DNA of 64,000 nucleotides from Candidatus Sericytochromatia bacterium. Lineage in GTDB: Bacteria; Cyanobacteriota; Sericytochromatia; S15B-MN24; VGJW01. The position numbers were made by a program, and so were the translations under genes. The stretch spans positions 1 to 64,000 of the forward strand of contig JAYKHS010000006.1 of NCBI GenBank assembly GCA_035285865.1. The letters run 5' to 3'. Shown here in pieces: positions 52,706 to 63,134 of the stretch (positions are counted from its first letter, which is position 1; every line of letters begins with the position of its first letter). Below the pieces are notes generated by a model, which was not told the DNA's origin, did not search any database, and saw only the letters and a list, made by a program, of their open reading frames with translations.

Positions 52706-53815
52706 TCAGAACGAGACGCCGGCCTCGATGAACGGACCGGACTCGAATGTGACCCGGAACGAGTCCTGGAGGGTAATGGCCTTAGCCTCCAAGTCTGCCT
52801 TTACGTTGGCAGGAACCGAGCCGTTGAGGATGGAAGTCGGATCGACCGTTCCTGGGAGGCCGGCACTTAACAGGCTGCCGAAGGCCGCGCCGAAGTCGGA
52901 GCCGTAGCCCGTCAGACGGAGGCGTTGGCCGAACTTGACCTTGACGCCATAGAGCGTAAGACCGAGGGCTACTTCGGCCTCCGCGGGTACGAGCGTCGCT
53001 GCGCTGGCCGCGCCGTCGGCAACCGTCAGGGGCGCGATACCGCCCAGCAGGTCAACGCCCCCGCTGACCGGTCCCAGGCCGAGGCCCAGCCCATAGCCCA
53101 CGAGGAACTCGTTGAGCGAGACATCCTTGTCGGCGGGAACGCCGGGAAGACCCCGGTAGGTTTCACGCCGGTAGCCGGCGCGCAGGCCGAGGGCCTTGCC
53201 ATAGAACCCGGTGTAGCCTTGGCTGAGCAGGGGGCCAGGAACTGGCAGGCTGCTTGCCACCGACGAGGCTCCGAAATTGGTCGGAGCAACGCGCATGCCG
53301 GCGGCTTCGAGTCCACCCGAGAAGATCAAGAAACCGAGTTCGGCCTTGAGGGTGTTCAGGGATGCGCCGCTGGAAATCTGCGTGGCCAGCTTAGGGTCTC
53401 TGATGTTGGGGGCCGTGATCGAGGTGTTGAGGCCAGGCACGGTAAAGCTTGCGTTCTCGAAGGACGGGAATTTGTTTTCGACGTTCTGCTGGTTGCGGGT
53501 ACCCGCCATCACTTCCAGCCAGAAGAAGGGCGGCAGCTTGGGCGGCCAGCCGAGGTTCAGGCCGCCGGATGCCGGTGCCTCTTCGGCCGACTCCCTGGCG
53601 ACTTTGCCGCTCATGACGAGCCCGTCCGTTCCGGGTGCGGCGGACTTGGCAGGGGTGGCGGCAGGCGCGGCCGGGGCCGGGACGGCAACGGGGCTCTCTG
53701 CAGGTGTGCCGGAGGGAGCCGGACTGGATCGGCGAATCTGCGCCTGCGCCGGAGTCGCGATGAGGAACGAGGCTGCAAGAAGGGCAACGGTGCCAAGCGG
53801 TCGGGTCATGGTCAT
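52706..53815 (-). CDS. Hypothetical outer-membrane beta-barrel protein
   Basis: Signal peptide, Pro/Ala linker, Gly/aromatic amphipathic strands, C-terminal GPFIEAGVSF. Confidence 0.7.
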   Translation of the reverse strand: MTMTRPLGTVALLAASFLIATPAQAQIRRSSPAPSGTPAESPVAVPAPAAPAATPAKSAAPGTDGLVMSGKVARESAEEAPASGGLNLGWPPKLPPFFWLEVMAGTRNQQNVENKFPSFENASFTVPGLNTSITAPNIRDPKLATQISSGASLNTLKAELGFLIFSGGLEAAGMRVAPTNFGASSVASSLPVPGPLLSQGYTGFYGKALGLRAGYRRETYRGLPGVPADKDVSLNEFLVGYGLGLGLGPVSGGVDLLGGIAPLTVADGAASAATLVPAEAEVALGLTLYGVKVKFGQRLRLTGYGSDFGAAFGSLLSAGLPGTVDPTSILNGSVPANVKADLEAKAITLQDSFRVTFESGPFIEAGVSF

Positions 53816-53833
53816 GATGTCGGGGGAGCCTCC

Positions 53834-55288
53834 TCAGGTCTCCAAGGCATGGTCCAGCAGCAAGCTGGCTTCGCCAAGGCTCTTGCGTTTCAGGGCCGAC
53901 TCCACCTTGGCGATGTCGGAACGAAGCTTGGCAGCCTTGGTCACGGTGGGGTCCGCGAGCAGTTCGGAGGTTCGCAGCAGGTCCATCGCGGCCTTGCGCA
54001 CGGTAGCATGCTGACCGCCCTTGATGTCGTTGGCACAGGACTCGGCAAGGTCGGCCATCTGGTTGGAGCGGTTCACGATGAGGCCGTCGAAGACCTCGGC
54101 CGTGCGGGCCAGCACGCTCGCGCTGCGCAGCAGGTTCGGGTCGACTTCGCCCTTGAGCATCTTGCGCAGGGCGAGGCCGCCCTTGATCAGCTCCACGCCG
54201 CGCCCGAAGACCTGATCGCCCATGACGGCACTGCCGCAATGCACGAGGATGGCGAGAGGCACGACGAAGGGATACTGGCGAGCCTTGAGGGTCTCGACGA
54301 GTTGCAGCAACTGCTTGTCGATGAGCTTCCACTTGTCCTGGTTGCCCTGCGCCGAAACCTCCGTGCGGTCGGTGACTTCGGGAATCTCGACGCTTTCGCC
54401 GCCGGCCGCGACCACCGAACCGGCAGAGATGACCTGTTCCGTCAGGTCCGCCACGGCCGCAAAGTCCTTGGCCGCCAGCGCCTTGAGCAGCTTGCCGCCG
54501 ACCTTGCCGAGGAAGCGGGACTGCCGGTGCATTTCCTTGTCCAGGCGCATGAGGCGGACATCGAAGTCCCTGCACCACGTCTCGATGGTGTCGGTCTCAC
54601 GAGATTCAAGGGCTTCTTGCAGCTTCGGGACGATGGCGCGGACCTCCCGAGCTTCCTTGAGGATGTCGTCGCCGAGCAGGCCCACTTCGCCGACCAGACG
54701 AACAGCCAGGGGCTTCAGGGTCGCAGCGCTCCGCGTCCGGGCTGCATCGCGCAGGGCCTTCTCAAGTCCGTCCAGTGCCTCAATGCGTGCGGCTTCCGTC
54801 CGGAGCAGGCTGTCTGCCTCGGCCGTGCGGTCTTCGAGCAGCAGGCCGATGGCTGCCACGTCCCCTCGGTCGAACATAGGCTTCAGATCGTCGAAGAGCG
54901 GCTTGCGACGCTTGAGGTCCTTGGGTTCGTCCTTGCGGCGGAAAAAGCTCTCGATGCGGATGCGCATCGTCTGCGTGAGTTCGTTGGTCTTGCTCTTGGG
55001 CTCGTCACCCTGGGCCTTGCCCCACGCGCGCCCGGTCGGAGAAGCTACCGAGGCGCCCGGGCGTCGTGCCGTGAAGAAGTCCTTGGGAGGAGCCTTGGAT
55101 TCGGACATCTGTCCGGGATCCAGCTTGCCTGTTCCACGGGGTGCCAGTGGGCCCGTGCCCCGCGAGCTCGCGGGGCGGCCCTGAGCGGCCATCGAGCCCT
55201 GGCGACCCTTTCGACTCTTCTTCTTGCTCTTCCGGCCACGGCCGAACCCACCTCTGAGGAGGTCCAGCAGCTTGTCGATGAGGCCCAA
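53834..55288 (-). CDS. Hypothetical alpha-helical/coiled-coil protein with a basic disordered N-terminus
   Basis: 484-aa ORF; extended -10 TGCTAGACT upstream; co-oriented with the barrel gene. Confidence 0.75.
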   Translation of the reverse strand: MGLIDKLLDLLRGGFGRGRKSKKKSRKGRQGSMAAQGRPASSRGTGPLAPRGTGKLDPGQMSESKAPPKDFFTARRPGASVASPTGRAWGKAQGDEPKSKTNELTQTMRIRIESFFRRKDEPKDLKRRKPLFDDLKPMFDRGDVAAIGLLLEDRTAEADSLLRTEAARIEALDGLEKALRDAARTRSAATLKPLAVRLVGEVGLLGDDILKEAREVRAIVPKLQEALESRETDTIETWCRDFDVRLMRLDKEMHRQSRFLGKVGGKLLKALAAKDFAAVADLTEQVISAGSVVAAGGESVEIPEVTDRTEVSAQGNQDKWKLIDKQLLQLVETLKARQYPFVVPLAILVHCGSAVMGDQVFGRGVELIKGGLALRKMLKGEVDPNLLRSASVLARTAEVFDGLIVNRSNQMADLAESCANDIKGGQHATVRKAAMDLLRTSELLADPTVTKAAKLRSDIAKVESALKRKSLGEASLLLDHALET

Positions 55289-55380
55289 TCTTCTACCTGA
55301 CGGTCAAGGGAGCAACGAAGTCTAGCATTCCCGTAGCACGTTCGTTGTGACCGACGAACGCTCCGTCCAAGCTGTTCGGC

Positions 55381-56418
55381 TCAGCGATAGGGGATTGGCA
55401 GGGGCGGGCGATATCGCGGCCGATCCACTTTGGTGCCGTTGATATCGGGCAGGTAGGCGATCATCTCGCCCCGAGAGGTCGAGACCACGAAACCGGTCTC
55501 GAGTTGTTCGCGGTACATCGGCATGTAGTACTGCATCGGCGTGTCGGGCGTGTCGTCGAGCATCTGCAACTTGGCGTCCAGCACCAGGTTGTTGTTGATG
55601 AGCACGTTGCCGCCCCACATGAGGATGTAGTTCCGGGCGGGTTCCGGCGGCGCAGGGCGCTCGCGCCTCACACCGTCGTCGAAGCGCATCGTCACACGAC
55701 CCTGCTGGATGGTGGCTCCGGTGCAGAAGGCCTTCATTGCGGGGGGCGGAATCATGCGGTCGGGGTAGAGGATGATGTCATTGCCGTCGATCCGGACCCC
55801 CTTGTCTTCCCGGGCCTTCATCATCTCGGCGAGGTCCACGCCGAATACATCCAGCAAGCCCTTGACCGGCAGGCCGTTGGACTTGACCCGGTCCGGACGC
55901 AGGATGAGCTGGCCTTTGCCGTTCGGACGCAGCTCACCCTCGATTTCGCAGGTGGTGGTCACGCCGAACTTCTTGAGCTTTGCGGTCTGGCGCAGGCGTC
56001 CATTGGTGCAAGAGATGCGGATGTCGCTGATGGGCGAGCCGGGGAAGTTGAAGACGTACCGGTTCATCATGGCCGCCATGGCCTGCTCGGTAAGCGTGAA
56101 CTCGGCGACGTGCACTTTGACGAGGAAATCGTTGACGTTGCCCGGGACCAGCGGTTTGCCGAGATCGTAGGGGATCAGGTCCGCATCCATGGACGGCATG
56201 TCGACGACCACTTCCTCGTCGATTCTGTAGGCCACGTTCTGCATGTAGAAGCGGGTCGGTGCCCCCTTGGGCTCCTCGAAGGGCAGCCGCGTGGGCGTTG
56301 TCACGGGCACTTCCGTCCCTGAGGGCGAACCGCCACAACCGGCTAGCACCACGGTGGCCGCGGCCGCGAGGGCCTTGAGCCTGCGCAGCGTGGAGCGGGG
56401 GGCGCCGTGGGGGTGCAT
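55381..56418 (-). CDS. Hypothetical beta-rich lipoprotein (possible lipid-transfer fold)
   Basis: Lipobox LAGC; FTLTEQAMAAMMNRYVF, extended beta pattern. Confidence 0.78.
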   Translation of the reverse strand: MHPHGAPRSTLRRLKALAAAATVVLAGCGGSPSGTEVPVTTPTRLPFEEPKGAPTRFYMQNVAYRIDEEVVVDMPSMDADLIPYDLGKPLVPGNVNDFLVKVHVAEFTLTEQAMAAMMNRYVFNFPGSPISDIRISCTNGRLRQTAKLKKFGVTTTCEIEGELRPNGKGQLILRPDRVKSNGLPVKGLLDVFGVDLAEMMKAREDKGVRIDGNDIILYPDRMIPPPAMKAFCTGATIQQGRVTMRFDDGVRRERPAPPEPARNYILMWGGNVLINNNLVLDAKLQMLDDTPDTPMQYYMPMYREQLETGFVVSTSRGEMIAYLPDINGTKVDRPRYRPPLPIPYR

Positions 56419-57485: not shown

Positions 57486-57863
57486 TCAAGAATACCGCTC
57501 GAGGGACGCTGGGCGCAGCCCCCTGTATTGCTGGCAGAAGGCGTCGTAGATGGGAGAGAACAGTTCGAAGGTCCCTGAGCGCATCCGTGTCGGTGGCAGG
57601 GCGGAGCCCCACCCACCAAGGTGAATCACCAGATCTGGCGAGGCCATGGACAAGTCGCGCATGCCCTCGATCAGGCGCGCAGCATCCTCGCCCGAGCAGC
57701 CGTCGATGCAGCCGAGAAATCCTTCCCCGGAGTCGGCGAGCCGGATCGAGATGCGCCCTTCGCCGAAGCGGTCCAACAGGGCGGTCGTCGTCCCCGCCAT
57801 GTCACACGCATCCGCGTCGCCATCCAGCTGGAAGACGAAGGCGTGTCCACGCGGCTCGAACAT
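57486..57863 (-). CDS. Hypothetical protein
   Basis: 3' part of the long 57486-58970 ORF; ends 6 nt before dusB. Confidence 0.6.
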   Translation of the reverse strand: MFEPRGHAFVFQLDGDADACDMAGTTTALLDRFGEGRISIRLADSGEGFLGCIDGCSGEDAARLIEGMRDLSMASPDLVIHLGGWGSALPPTRMRSGTFELFSPIYDAFCQQYRGLRPASLERYS

Positions 57864-58010
57864 CAATGGCCGTGACCCCTTTCGCCCGTGGCTACGCTCT
57901 TCTGGCCCCCTTTTTCGTACCCCTGCGACCCGGTCGTGTAACCCCGCGTTTGACGGCTGCGCTTGTCCCCTGCTAGCCTTGGCCGGCCCACAGCCAAACC
58001 GAGGTTCATC

Positions 58011-58238
58011 GTGCCCCAGCCCGCCCTGCGCCAGCGCATCCGTGTCCGTCACGAGGATGGCACGGTGATGGAGCTGGACCGTGATCCGGCGCGTGAGGTC
58101 GGTGAACTGGTGACGGCCGACGCCTTGGCTTGGCCCGGTGCGCCTGTGAAGTTTCTCGTGACGGCCAAGTCCTTGGCCCCGGGGTCTGACGTCGAGCCTT
58201 CCGAGATCGTTTACGAGGTTCGTCCGCTCGGAGCCTGA
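58011..58238 (+). CDS. Small hypothetical beta protein
   Basis: GAGG RBS + GTG, extended -10 TGCTAGCCT, followed by a hairpin. Confidence 0.6.
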   Translation: MPQPALRQRIRVRHEDGTVMELDRDPAREVGELVTADALAWPGAPVKFLVTAKSLAPGSDVEPSEIVYEVRPLGA

Positions 58239-58239
58239 A

Positions 58240-58265
58240 CGGCCGACCCGTTGCCGGATCGGCCG
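58240..58265. terminator. Hairpin between convergent genes
   Basis: CGGCCGACCCG-TTGC-CGGATCGGCCG. Confidence 0.55.
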
Positions 58266-58288
58266 CTCTCGTCCGTGAAACCCGGGCC

Positions 58289-59404
58289 CTACTTCAGGAT
58301 GAATCCTACGCCGACCTCGTAGGTGAAGCCGCCGACGTCGACCGTGTTGTCGAGACCATTGGCGGTCGCCTGACGAATCGCCTTCTGCGCCGGGAAGTTG
58401 ACAAATCCCAGATTCAGGAAAGTTTCCGGGGTGAACCGGAACATCAGGCCGCCCTTGGTCAGCAGGGCGTTGCGGAAGTCGTTGTCGCCCACGAGGAAGC
58501 CCTGGCCGAGACCACCGTACAGGTTCACCACCCGATTTTTGGTTTCCTTGTAGAAGAGCGGATCGAGGGATAGCAGGAAGGCCGCATTCACGTTGTAGAG
58601 CTGCACGCTGATGTTCGGCTTGACCGGACGTCCCAGCGAGGAAAACCCGCCCTCGATTCCGAACGCGAAGTTCTCGAGGAAGCTGCTCTGGCGCAGGAGG
58701 CCCAGACTGAGGCCGAGGCTGCCGTCCGCAGTCTCGGGCGTGCCGGTGCCGGGATTGCCACGCGAGGTCGACAGGCCCTGGAAGATGCCGCTGACATACA
58801 GCCCGGAATCGCCGTAGCGACGATCCTCCTCGGCTTTCTGGCGTCGCTCGGCGACGAGGTCGCGGTTCGGCTCGGTCTGGAAGCTCTTGGACCAGACGAT
58901 GGCCCCGTCCAACGCACGGACGAGCTTGAAGTTGACGATGACGTTCTTGCCCGTGCCCATCGTGTGCCACATCAGGACACCGTCGACGCCCAGCTGATGG
59001 CCGATCTCGGCGAGGCGGGCATTGCTCTCGATGGTGTTCGAGTAGCTGAAGCTCTTGTCATCGGACACCACGCGCGGAGTCCTGCATTCGCGGCATTCGA
59101 CCACGCGGAAACGGTTGGTGCGGATCAGTTCGTCGGTGATGCGCGATTCAATCAGCGAGTTCAGCTCGGGGAACCGATCCTGTCGGGTTTCCCGGAAGAC
59201 CACCACTTTGACGAGGCCTGGATCGACCGTCCGGATGGAATCCGGAAAGCCGGCGAAGAGTTGGTCGAACAGTGCCGGACTGGTCAGCATCGCCACGGCA
59301 GGGTCTTCGTTACCGACCTGCCTTGAGTCGGCGGCAAGGGCCGCGGGCGCTTGCAGGCCAAGGACGGCCAGACTGGTGAGGGTGAGGAACGTGCGACGGA
59401 TCAT
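58289..59404 (-). CDS. Exported protein: CsgG/FlgO/TolB-N-like alpha/beta domain plus a C-terminal OMP-like beta-barrel
   Basis: MIRRTFL signal; ITDELIRTNRFRVVE, LAEIGHQLGVDGVL, VNFKLVRALDGAIVWSKSF; C-terminal alternating strands ending YEVGVGFILK. Confidence 0.75.
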   Translation of the reverse strand: MIRRTFLTLTSLAVLGLQAPAALAADSRQVGNEDPAVAMLTSPALFDQLFAGFPDSIRTVDPGLVKVVVFRETRQDRFPELNSLIESRITDELIRTNRFRVVECRECRTPRVVSDDKSFSYSNTIESNARLAEIGHQLGVDGVLMWHTMGTGKNVIVNFKLVRALDGAIVWSKSFQTEPNRDLVAERRQKAEEDRRYGDSGLYVSGIFQGLSTSRGNPGTGTPETADGSLGLSLGLLRQSSFLENFAFGIEGGFSSLGRPVKPNISVQLYNVNAAFLLSLDPLFYKETKNRVVNLYGGLGQGFLVGDNDFRNALLTKGGLMFRFTPETFLNLGFVNFPAQKAIRQATANGLDNTVDVGGFTYEVGVGFILK

Positions 59405-59438
59405 CGGGGTCACCTGAATCAGGGTTTGGTGGCAGGGA

Positions 59439-61133
59439 TCAGCGGCGGGAACGGGTGTTGATGCGGCCCAGGCTCTGTCGGACTTCCGCCATGCCGGGGT
59501 CGAGATCGAGGGCACGGGACCAGGAGATGCGAGCGAGTCCGAGGTCTCCCATCTTGTAGTAGATGGAGCCTTGGAGCGCCAGCACCTGCGCGTTATCCGG
59601 AGCGAGATCGAGGGCCCGGGCCACCTCGGCGAGTGCCTTGTCGTATTTGCCGGCATAGGCAAGGCGTTGTGCCGAGGCGTAGTGGCGCTGGATCTCGCTC
59701 GCCAGAGCGGCCACCTCACCCGGCGATGGCGTCAGGACGACCACCGGGGGTGAGGGATAGGGCGGCGGCGTCGGATACGGAGGAGGCGTCGGGTAGGTCG
59801 GGAACTTGAAGTCCGTGGGCAATTTGTTCTCGATCTCGATCTTGGAAACCGACTCGACGCGGGAGCGTTCGTTGACCTCGCTGCGTTGGGTGGCATCCGA
59901 CCGGATGGTGCTGTCGCTACGGATGTTGGTGTCCGAGCGATTGTCCTGCCGTGCGTTGCTGTCCTGCTGTACCCGTGATTCGGAACGCTGCATGCCGGCG
60001 GGTCCGTAGCCTTCACCGCCCATCGTGCCCTGGGGCATGCGCACCACCGCTGGTTCGGCCACGGCGGGCTTCGGGTCAGGACTCGGCTCGGGTGGCACCA
60101 CGACCTTCATGTAGAGGTCACGATCTTCCGGGAACAGCAGGCTCTCCAGGTCCACGGAGCTGCCCTTTCGCTTCAGGCGGATGAAGTCGCCGCCTTGTCG
60201 CGGGGGATCGGCCTGCACCGCAGGAGCCGCCGCCGGTGCGGCAGGTGCCGCTGCCTGCACCACGGGCCTTGCGACCGGTACGAACTCGTCCAGCCGGGGG
60301 ACCCGCGGTGTCGGTTCGGAGACGAAGCGGAAGGCCGGAGCCGGTGTTTCGCCTGGCTGTCTGGCATAAGGATTCGGCCTGGGCGCCGCAATCGGCGCTG
60401 CGCCGGGGGCCGGTGGCGGAGCAAGCCTGCCGGTGGCAGGAAGGGAGCGTTGGGGTTGGGGTGAAGGTGAAGGAGTTGCGGCAGCCACCACGGGGTCGGC
60501 GATGGCTCTCCCGGGCATGACCGGGGCCAGAGGTGACGGCGGCAGGGGATTGACGGCTGCAGGGGGCACGGGCGGCGGAGCGACGGGCACGGAGGCCTGT
60601 TCCGTGGGCGTTGGCTCGAGGGGCGTCTCCGCGGGAACGGGCTCTTCAGGAGAGGATGCGGTGACCGGTCCGGGCGCCGCTGGAGCCGTCTGGGGGGCCG
60701 TTTCGTTTGGCGTTCCCTCGACTGGTTGCGGTTCGTCGGGCAACAACGCCGCCATGGCCACCTCGGGCGCAAGGGGTTCGTTGGTGGCGGCCACCGGGAC
60801 TTCCGGTGCCGAAGCCTGCCCCCCGACCTCGCCGGGCTTGCCGGTCACGCCTGATGAGACGTCGACGACTTCACGAAGGCGGCCCTCCTCGAAGCGGAGG
60901 ACGTAGCGGGCTCCACCGGGTTGGCCATAAGTCATCTCTTCGACCTTGCCTTCGGTGCCGCCTGTCATCTGGGAGAGGGGCGTGCCCAGAAACTCGACGA
61001 CCTTCTCGGGGCTCATGCCCGGGCGGAGGTCGCCGATGTGCTCGACGGCCGGATGGGCGAGCGCAGGCAAGAGCTCGCCCATCAGGCTCGCGGCGAGGCC
61101 AAGCGCCAGCAGGGAGGAACGACGGGAACGCAT
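59439..61133 (-). CDS. Exported protein: SmpA/BamE-like N-domain, Pro-rich linker, hexad repeats, C-terminal TPR
   Basis: LRPGMSPEKVVEFLGTP..YVLRFEEGRL; GKYDKALAEVARALDLAPDN..GSIYYKMGD..WSRALDLDP. Confidence 0.8.
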   Translation of the reverse strand: MRSRRSSLLALGLAASLMGELLPALAHPAVEHIGDLRPGMSPEKVVEFLGTPLSQMTGGTEGKVEEMTYGQPGGARYVLRFEEGRLREVVDVSSGVTGKPGEVGGQASAPEVPVAATNEPLAPEVAMAALLPDEPQPVEGTPNETAPQTAPAAPGPVTASSPEEPVPAETPLEPTPTEQASVPVAPPPVPPAAVNPLPPSPLAPVMPGRAIADPVVAAATPSPSPQPQRSLPATGRLAPPPAPGAAPIAAPRPNPYARQPGETPAPAFRFVSEPTPRVPRLDEFVPVARPVVQAAAPAAPAAAPAVQADPPRQGGDFIRLKRKGSSVDLESLLFPEDRDLYMKVVVPPEPSPDPKPAVAEPAVVRMPQGTMGGEGYGPAGMQRSESRVQQDSNARQDNRSDTNIRSDSTIRSDATQRSEVNERSRVESVSKIEIENKLPTDFKFPTYPTPPPYPTPPPYPSPPVVVLTPSPGEVAALASEIQRHYASAQRLAYAGKYDKALAEVARALDLAPDNAQVLALQGSIYYKMGDLGLARISWSRALDLDPGMAEVRQSLGRINTRSRR

Positions 61134-61136
61134 CGT

Positions 61137-63134
61137 CTAGCCCTCCGCCAGCGTCTTCATCGAGAACCGACCTTGGCGGACCATGTCGCGGATTCGGCCG
61201 ACGACCTCGCGACGGGCTGCCTCGGCACCCTCCGGGTCCACCGGCTGGCCTTCCAGGCGCTCCAGCGCGTCCATCAGCAGGGCGCGACGCTTGTCCGTCA
61301 TCGCACCGAGCACGGCTTCCTGCAGGGGCTCCTCGGCGTCCCTGATGGCCTGGGCCACGATGCCCGGATCCAGTTCGCGCACGGCATCCTTGATGACGGC
61401 AGCGGGCAGGCGAGGCAGATCCACGAACGTCAGGTACAGCTCGCGGACCTTGCGCATCATGTCCGGGTTCTGGGTCTTCAGGTTGTCGAGAATGCGCTGC
61501 TCCGTCGTGGCGTCCGCATTGTCGAGGATATTGACGAGGAGGCCGACCCCATCCGTGACGACGGCGCTGAAGGACGGCGCCTGCGCCGCCTTCATGGCCA
61601 GTTTTTCGGCGATGCTCTCGAAGGTCGTCAGCGGGATCGATTCGAGTTCGCCAAGTGCGGTCGCCACAGGACCCTGCTCTTCGACGGGCCACTTGGCCAT
61701 CAGGCCGGCAGCCCGCTTGTATGCCAATTGGGACAAAACGAGGGCCCGGACCTTGGCGCCTTCGTCCTGCAGGATCCAGAGCACCTGAGAGTCATCGATG
61801 CGATCGAGGAAACCAAACGGAGCCAGCTTGCGCCCGGCCTGAGCGCCTTGCTCGGCCTTGGCGGCGATCAGCATCGGATAGGCCTCTTCGAGCACGGCCA
61901 TCGCTTCCTCGGAAGGTACCTCACGGGTCGAAAGCAGCGCGGCTTCCACCCGCGTGCGTTCGTCGTCCGCGAGGCCGGGGACCGTCCGGGCTGCCTGAGC
62001 CATGCCCAGCACCCGGAGCAGATTCGCGACCTTTTGCAGGCCCTCTTCCTTGCGGGCCAGACCGGCCACCATCGGAGCCGCGAGTTCGGGCTGCTCCAGC
62101 AGCATGGCCACGATTTCCTGGCGAAGCGCCTGCAAGGCCCTGGCGGCCCGCTGTTCCTCGGCTGTGGGACCCGCAGGCTGCGTCGGCTCCTTGGTCTGCT
62201 GGGGCAGCAGGGCGGAGGCCCACGCCGGCGGCGCCTCTGCGCCCGGTGTGGCGTCCGGCTTGCGCTTGCGCAGCAGGGCGAACAGCCCCATCACGAGGCC
62301 CAGACCAAGCAGCCCGAGCAGCGCAGCCAGCAGGTTGCGGATGGTCGGGTCGGTCTCGCCGGCCACCGGTGCGTTCCCTGCGGCAAGCGGGGCTGCGAGC
62401 GGCAGACCCGATGCCGCGGCCACGCTGTCCGTGCCCGTCGCCGCGATGGCTGCGGCTTTCTGCAGCGTGGGCGGGAACTGGCGGTTCATGATCTCCAGGC
62501 TGTCTCCGCGGGCGAAATTGAGATCCGCCTTCTGGTAGATGAGCTTTTCGATGAAGTCACGCTCTTCCTGAGCGAGATTCTTTTCGATGACGGTCAGGAT
62601 TCGGACACGGTCGATGCGCAGACCGCTGACTTCCGAAGATGGGACGGCCGCAACCTGCTGGCCCACCGGGGGCAGGGAGGGTGGCGCCGCAACGGGCTGC
62701 GCCGCAGGGCGCGCCGCCGCCGGACGCGCCGGTAGCCCGGGCAGATCCACCTCTTCGGGATCCAGCGGTTCCGTGCCGGGCAGGTTCGCCGTCAGGGCGG
62801 GCTGGAGCGGGGGAGGCAGGACCTGCAAGGGCTTGGGTGCCTGACCGGGGAGGCGCTGCATCCTGACCCGCACCTGCACGATGAAGCGGTCATTGCCCAG
62901 ATAGGAGGCCATGGCCTGTTTCAGGCTCTCCTCCAGCAACTTCTCGTAACTGAGTTCCTCGAGTACGACCCCGTCATGCCGGGCGTCCGCGGGCCCAGCA
63001 GGCAACTGGGCAAGAGCGGGCTGGGGCAGCGCCGCCGGCAGCAGGGCTGCGACCGCCACGCAGGCCGCACGCAGGGCGCCAGCGGTCGGCAAGACACTCG
63101 TCGGAAGGGGCCAAGGGGCTCGCATGCGGGTCAC
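61137..63134 (-). CDS. FliF(RBM3+TM+C-terminal)-FliG fusion protein with a signal peptide
   Basis: [11 protein letters not shown] and [20 protein letters not shown] (FliF-like); TM at aa 268-288; [13 protein letters not shown] (FliG-N), PFGFL..ALVLSQL (FliG-M), [16 protein letters not shown] (FliG-C). Confidence 0.85.

Follow-up and report, generated by a model that had tools for sequence, protein, structure and literature searches.

Genes and domains of the locus

The stretch of DNA analyzed here (the window) comprises 64,000 nucleotides of a Candidatus Sericytochromatia bacterium (GenBank JAYKHS010000006.1, contig C6 of a 2.82-Mb genome that is 83% complete), and this study concerns three genes near its end, A, B, and C, which encode a FliF-FliG fusion, a tetratricopeptide repeat (TPR) protein, and a protein with a predicted 8-stranded barrel. 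The coordinates bear out a preliminary description of this DNA, made from the sequence alone, which had reported three co-oriented genes with gaps of 3 bp (A-B) and 34 bp (B-C), all on the minus strand. The open reading frame of gene A spans 61137-63134, and its likely start is the ATG at 63125, in agreement with the N-termini of homologs, giving a gene at 61137..63125 (662 aa) followed by gene B at 59439..61133 (564 aa) and gene C at 58289..59404 (371 aa). Each product carries one N-terminal hydrophobic segment, consistent, on hydropathy only, with the export signals already proposed for all three. The boundaries drawn in that description fared less well. The neighbor of gene A is indeed divergent, and Pfam gives it as an aminotransferase class V protein, the label of cysteine desulfurase being that description's own. 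The "terminator" 3' of gene C is a hairpin on the minus strand (58237..58268, 14 bp, z = -3.15) that has no U-run and was not called by a consensus terminator scan; transcription probably ends there. No sigma-70 promoter was found.

Gene A encodes, in order, a signal peptide, a FliF RBM3 domain, one transmembrane helix, the FliF C-terminal helices, and FliG domains N, M, and C. Pfam models FliG_N, FliG_M, and FliG_C all match above their cut-offs; YscJ_FliF_C is weak in the window gene (E 0.022) and covers the full model above cut-off in a homolog (L054, E 1.3e-8), YscJ_FliF does not match gene A in Pfam, and the fliG equivalog TIGR00207 is not reached (73 bits versus a cut-off of 227). An AlphaFold2 model built from 131 sequences (mean pLDDT 80.8; pTM 0.38, so that domain placement is unreliable) comprises a periplasmic alpha-beta-insert-beta-alpha-beta domain, one transmembrane helix, two helices, and then the FliG domains. 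Foldseek pairs it with full-length FliG at E 6e-10 and with FliF RBM3 rings at E 5e-3 to 1e-2 (prob 1.0), and with hhalign the family profile aligns to the end of RBM3 in this genome's own FliF (prob 94.5). The FliF and FliG folds first proposed for the fusion are thus real.

The RBM3-like domain, as delimited by model, Foldseek, and hhalign, lies at 62481..62975 (minus strand) and is split by a disordered insert. RBM1 and RBM2 are absent, and a Pro-rich loop takes the place of the beta-collar, the model holding a single periplasmic domain with its insert. Two motifs stand out in the family alignment, namely, [RK]GD in the RBM3-like domain (117/131 members) and [LM]PG[LFVM] in the disordered insert (118/131), the latter supported by column conservation. 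In the window the second reads LPGLP (62730..62744, minus strand) and is a candidate torque-coupling peptide. FliF loops grip the rod in the flagellar motor, according to the consulted part of 10.64898/2025.12.04.692373, and we infer from position that LPGLP may be their equivalent. The single transmembrane helix (62265..62348, minus strand, residues 260-287) is placed by both model and hydropathy.

The cytoplasmic part (61137..62162, minus strand) joins the FliF C-terminal helices, whose end motif keeps its Trp in 78 of 131 family members, to a FliG with a short N domain. In a comparison of 41 fusions with 23 canonical FliG proteins (E. coli numbering), the N domain of the fusions is ~26 residues shorter (median of 36 versus 62 residues over the measured span). 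E125 (39/41), R or K at 281 (39/41), and G195 (40/41) are kept, and the FliM-binding motif is lost: H126 and R160, which belong to the EHPQR motif in the consulted part of PMC6290876, occur in 0/41 fusions each versus 22/23 and 23/23 canonical proteins. In an unrooted tree over 214 columns, one long branch parts the 41 fusions, hand-picked from the loci and proteins at hand, from the 23 canonical FliG, 14 of them from Sericytochromatia (ultrafast bootstrap 98-100). The fusion family thus forms a single lineage separate from canonical FliG, and hence is old, the tree being silent on which came first. As a separate observation, this genome also encodes a second full FliF, matching both Pfam FliF models and ending in FliG_M (E 2e-12), at G000:C26:117473-119395 (L005:9474-11396); this fusion, reminiscent of that of Chlamydia, immediately precedes flhA in another flagellar-like cluster.

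Gene B is a TPR protein with a signal peptide, a weak BamE-like domain, a Pro-rich linker, a conserved three-strand-like motif (residues ~316-347), and a family-specific C-terminal TPR (~480-560); its Atlas matches are TPR clusters only. The earlier label "BamE-like/TPR" holds for its second half, the BamE-like match being below cut-off (E 0.0033), present in the window's own genus and in L037, and absent from the other Sericytochromatia B N-termini compared. Likewise, the proposed long periplasmic tether exists in the window protein as a local elaboration, since most relatives measure 190-290 aa and carry the short strand motif and the C-terminal TPR. A lipobox-like motif occurs in 38/49 relatives; the window protein has no cysteine and hence is not a lipoprotein here, and the Pro-rich linker and BamE-like domain are extra to it. 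A run of short RSD-type and PTPPPY repeats precedes the TPR (59835-59985, minus strand).

For gene C, AlphaFold2 (mean pLDDT 87.3) predicts, behind the signal peptide, a FlgO/LpoB/TolB_N-type periplasmic domain, a helix, and an 8-stranded OmpA-like barrel. The barrel matches OmpA in Foldseek (E 2e-8) and OprF in VIA (Z 16.4, root mean square deviation [rmsd] 2.7, 127 aligned), and the periplasmic domain matches LpoB (Foldseek E 1e-4; VIA Z 11.1, rmsd 3.5, 127 aligned), TolB, and FlgT; Pfam FlgO is matched by 16/61 family members at E <= 0.05. As modeled, the protein is of the single-chain, 8-stranded OmpA-like type with its own barrel; a CsgG-type pore, by comparison, is a multimeric barrel to which many subunits contribute hairpins. 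What stands of the "CsgG/FlgO-like barrel" first proposed is thus a FlgO-type domain and a barrel, the barrel being OmpA-type; CsgG is absent among the Foldseek and VIA fold matches, which does not by itself exclude kinship. A terminal Phe is found in 41/49 family members, and the window protein ends in Lys.

A conserved five-gene module and its occurrence without a flagellum

Word-index protein searches returned close relatives only (12 and 10 matches), the close homologs of gene A being named Candidatus Sericytochromatia, and a full HMMER profile scan of 1.84 billion representatives was needed, from which 131 sequences entered the family alignment. Most of its best 150 matches are relatives of 550-780 aa, and among 20 looked up, the three with a given organism came from Elusimicrobia, Calditrichota, and Saccharospirillaceae. 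No relative was found on viral contigs. Within the class, the long form of A is present in 17/47 genomes, comprising all 8 of the window's own family (in one of them truncated where the contig ends) and 9/10 of a second family. A genome scan gave 43 loci, mostly of Fibrobacterota and Balneolaceae, and a metagenome scan gave 64; both sample two sub-clades only, and their tallies are not family-wide. Of 251 genomes sampled evenly from the phylum holding the Balneolaceae genome G065, 36 carry the long form, several in two copies.

Wide loci, in which A is flanked by 4 kb or more on either side, exclude the window, where A lies near the end. All five genes (A, B, C, motA, and motB) occur in 23/23 wide metagenome loci (of 64), in 27/27 wide genome loci (of 43, 2 of them without long A) from Fibrobacterota, Balneolaceae, and Rhodothermia, and in 7/11 wide Sericytochromatia loci (of 16), the four without a stator belonging to the window's own family. 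Gene order varies, being A-B-C in the window, A-C-B in the FCB group, and C-B-A in the metagenome clade. Profiles made from the metagenome neighbors find window B (E 4e-31) and window C (E 2e-45); the partners are thus true homologs, and the same gene set is kept with intact frames across several phyla at ~20% identity. Non-conservation of the neighbors had been named beforehand as grounds for rejecting the preliminary description, and both neighbors are kept with the fusion across phyla; the search it proposed for further conserved neighbors, stators included, found flagellar-type motA/motB beside TPR protein B and barrel protein C. In six metagenome loci (L105:2971-4542, L107, L108, L110, L111, and L114), a ~520-aa Sel1-repeat protein with a weak SPOR domain also stands beside the module.

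The module normally includes its own motA/motB pair, which the preliminary description had overlooked; in the window's family, this pair has relocated to a different contig. These stators are of the flagellar type, with the MotB plug, the ion-binding Asp, the OmpA domain, and the MotA torque interface, and they reach no stator equivalog cut-off. The E98 equivalent of MotA is acidic in 44/48 and the R90 equivalent is R or K in 30/48, and a W..[TS]Y.D motif occurs in 51/52 module MotB. This genome holds three motA/motB pairs, one of which is a stand-alone motB-motA pair of the module type (C28:12398-13960; L159). Against module stator profiles built without Sericytochromatia sequences, the C28 pair ranks top (1e-70 and 2e-78, versus 2e-45 and 2e-54 for the flagellar pair), and its MotA falls among the module MotA proteins and not with the C22 flagellar pair, the third pair, or E. 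coli (ultrafast bootstrap 97). Orthologs with 46% identity or more were identified in 10/17 genomes with gene A versus 0/30 without it, these relatives not being independent. In G014, such an ortholog is part of the operon itself, and in G027 a related motB is found immediately upstream of A. The C28 pair is thus probably the stator of the window operon, as profile ranking, tree, and co-occurrence suggest. The window locus illustrates that stator and operon need not be linked, and modules of this kind are missed if only neighbors are read. The third pair of this genome (G000:C28:97749-99437) belongs neither to the flagellar cluster nor to the module clade, and at L046:14508-17556 two stator pairs (motA-motB-motB-motA) follow A-B-C in one operon.

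Canonical fliF and fliG lie adjacent on contig C22 of this genome, within a flagellar cluster that also encodes switch, export, and stator components, so that gene A is not the flagellar rotor. Near A, none of 13 flagellar queries matched in the loci examined. No match to FlhA/SctV was obtained in 14/35 carriers of the first genome set. One carrier, G063, lacks a FlhA match and yet has flagellin and FliN; absence of FlhA in fragmented metagenome-assembled genomes is therefore unreliable, and the evidence is limited to four single-chromosome Balneolaceae (G065, G074, G075, and G077; 3.3-3.9 Mb), which carry the module without FlhA, flagellin, and FliM/N. The module occurs without any flagellum. 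Separate canonical fliF and fliG, whose absence the preliminary description had named as grounds for rejection, are present, and its suggestion of a device distinct from this organism's flagellum remains the likelier one.

A second type of module emerged from 8 further long-A loci of the 251-genome sample, 7 of which (L160, L164, and L166-L170) have B, motA, and motB and no C. It stands behind a ~1000-aa gene (1533 aa in L164), a ~280-aa gene, and several genes of 160-200 aa. Pfam gave Usher (E 7e-4) in 1/3 and PapD_N (E 7e-4) in 1/3, both sub-threshold, and DUF4402 in 5/9 small genes, one just above cut-off; PDB and NCBIfam searches of these neighbors gave no supporting match, so the label "chaperone-usher-like" is provisional. 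Atlas matches for the usher-like protein were unnamed SdrD_B-type clusters only. This protein ends in a B-type TPR in 7/7 (55-71 bits, versus no more than 27 for any other TPR in this genome), and the strand motif of B was found in 12/12 type 1 Balneolaceae B proteins (leave-out test, 7-22 bits) versus 0/6 of type 2. The TPR thus appears to go with A and the strand motif with C, a pattern pointing to a chain in which LPGLP of A would meet the TPR of B and the strand motif of B would meet C. No type 2 usher-like gene was found in this genome. Also observed at type 2 loci are a long MotB in six, a SPOR domain in that of L167, and a possibly broken locus, L171 (G260:C1:3615000-3629000), in which the open frame of A covers just its N-terminal 343 aa and a shortened usher-like gene adjoins.

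Elsewhere in the window, small unannotated open reading frames, partly conserved in the same family, occupy 57486-58238 between gene C and a dihydrouridine synthase gene, downstream of which lie three genes without a Pfam match (52706-56418, minus strand; 369, 484, and 345 aa) that are kept in the genus.

A proposed nonflagellar rotor and its alternatives

We favor, as somewhat better supported than all alternatives combined, a model in which the window genes encode part of a five-component, nonflagellar, MotAB-driven rotor that does not switch and is coupled through B to an outer membrane part. Its architecture, linkage, and independence from the flagellum are computed; the assembly of a ring, its contacts, its rotation, and its output are inferred. 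In this model, (i) copies of A would self-assemble via RBM3 to form a membrane ring, below which FliG would form another; (ii) wall-anchored MotA5B2 units, supplied in trans in this genome by motBA on C28, would turn the ring; and (iii) rotation would be unidirectional, given that the FliM-binding surface is lost and no switch proteins stand alongside. The export gate and rod would be replaced by a coupling in which the LPGLP loop of A grips the family-specific TPR of B and the three-strand motif of B docks on the periplasmic domain of C. Torque could then reach the outer membrane part, either the small barrel C (type 1, as in the window) or a usher-like protein bearing the same TPR (type 2). 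The most likely output would be mechanical work at the cell surface, i.e., turning or moving a surface adhesin or fiber. The preliminary description had suggested transport, surface motility, or prey attachment as possible roles. That such a rotor could turn is supported by artificial Salmonella FliF-FliG fusions, which rotate according to the consulted part of PMC4768692.

Several observations weigh against this model. Most carriers of the first set are also flagellated (21/35 with FlhA/SctV). Among the charged residues of the FliG torque helix, K264 and R297 are mostly lost in the fusions, position 288 is acidic in 12/41 and 289 in 18/41, and the window gene has K, D, and A at 281, 288, and 289. 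Ser occupies the R90 position of the C28 MotA, no stator lies in the window operon, and 4/11 wide Sericytochromatia loci are without one. MotA of G001 (L182) and G029 (L197) fall in the module clade though gene A was not found in these genomes, and G029 has no FliG-like match of any kind. The type 1 locus L165 has C and no detectable strand motif in B, and the chaperone-usher label rests on sub-threshold Pfam matches and gene layout.

The same parts could instead serve a Ton/Tol-like energizer, in which stator force pulls or gates the outer membrane protein (for assembly, usher secretion, uptake, or envelope remodeling) and nothing spins at the surface. We regard this as the most serious competitor, if an unlikely one. 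The periplasmic domain of C resembles TolB_N and LpoB, an 8-stranded barrel offers no obvious propeller, and the torque charges of the FliG part are partly eroded. SPOR domains are associated with septal targeting, which those on a type 2 MotB and on the Sel1-repeat neighbor would suggest here. Nevertheless, Ton/Tol systems, as is generally known, need no FliG ring, and here FliG N, M, and C are all retained; moreover, the stators are flagellar-type, with the MotB plug and the OmpA wall anchor that the consulted part of PMC12505986 treats as flagellar-stator (FIT) features.

A tethered rotor might also serve as a sensor of load or of contact with a surface, signaling by way of stator engagement and ion flux. 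The ring would indeed be tethered to the outer membrane without switch input, and load-dependent stator engagement is established for flagellar motors, but no signaling gene is conserved as a neighbor across phyla, and we consider such a mechanosensor improbable. Slightly less credible still is an accessory or alternative rotor within the host's own flagellum. Canonical FliG also occurs in 16/17 Sericytochromatia carriers and C resembles the flagellar ring proteins FlgO and FlgT; against this, the four chromosomes without FlhA, flagellin, and FliM/N largely refute the idea for nonflagellated carriers, A has no RBM1, RBM2, or FliM site, and the fusions form a lineage apart. That the module is a decaying relic of a lost flagellar system would explain the loss of several canonical FliG residues and of ~26 N-domain residues, but is scarcely believable given intact frames and one gene set across several phyla at such low identity, with family-specific motifs conserved.

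Beyond this locus, we put forward more tentatively, and at somewhat less than even odds, the broader view of a minimal five-gene rotary motor across many phyla, in which a self-assembling FliF-FliG rotor, a dedicated MotAB stator, and TPR coupling would drive an interchangeable outer membrane load (a small barrel or a spun chaperone-usher fiber) without type III export, rod, or filament. If true, the nonflagellar rotor would be the first use of FliG of this kind, possibly in a new motility or surface-working organelle, and would represent a sister lineage of the flagellar motor, perhaps a surviving precursor. A rotor and stator without export gate, rod, and filament would allow testing of whether they worked before or apart from type III secretion, and five genes are a set small enough to express and image.

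Comparison with known systems

Altogether, the module is real and widespread and, apparently, undescribed, and it does not qualify as a flagellum. To our knowledge, every characterized FliG rotor belongs to a flagellum. No description of the module was found in the literature searched, which did not extend to supplements or subscription papers, and the consulted parts of PMC12505986 and PMC13277936 do not mention it. The predicted fold of the C periplasmic domain is shared with the Vibrio FlgO/FlgT rings, LpoB, and the TolB N domain; in gene C, this domain is fused to an 8-stranded barrel.

PMF-driven (proton motive force-driven) delivery of force to the outer membrane would liken the module to the 5:2 ion motors outside the flagellum, i.e., ExbBD-TonB, TolQRA, AglRQS, GldLM/T9SS, and ZorAB, as treated in the consulted part of PMC12505986. 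Unlike theirs, the module stators are flagellar-type and not of the ExbB/TolQ type. We know of no 5:2 ion motor outside the flagellum that uses a FliG ring. Artificial Salmonella and Vibrio FliF-FliG fusions show that fusing the two proteins still allows a rotor to assemble and rotate; in contrast to gene A, these were engineered from flagellar proteins, and those of Salmonella work within a whole flagellum.

The preliminary description had mentioned a natural FliF-FliG fusion in Chlorobium. This was not borne out, FliG_C being found in 0/81 genomes from one family of green sulfur bacteria with FMO, and the published natural fusion belongs to Chlamydia (Bergeron 2016; consulted part of PMC4768692). 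Like gene A, the latter is a natural FliF-FliG fusion in a nonflagellated bacterium, but at ~330 aa it has two transmembrane helices, RBM2 plus one RBM, and FliG M only, and is linked to the injectisome, whereas gene A combines RBM3 with FliG N, M, and C and belongs to a module that brings its own stator and lacks a type III secretion system.

The closest comparison is with the core of the flagellar motor (FliF, FliG, and MotA5B2/PomAB). Both have RBM3, a FliG N that continues from the FliF C-terminal helices, the M and C domains of FliG, and the R281 equivalent, and the module stator has the plug and OmpA domain. Unlike the flagellar core, gene A is a single polypeptide in which an N-terminal signal takes the place of TM1-RBM1-RBM2 and the beta-collar is missing, and the module dispenses with the FliM site, export gate, rod, hook, filament, and switch and adds B and C.

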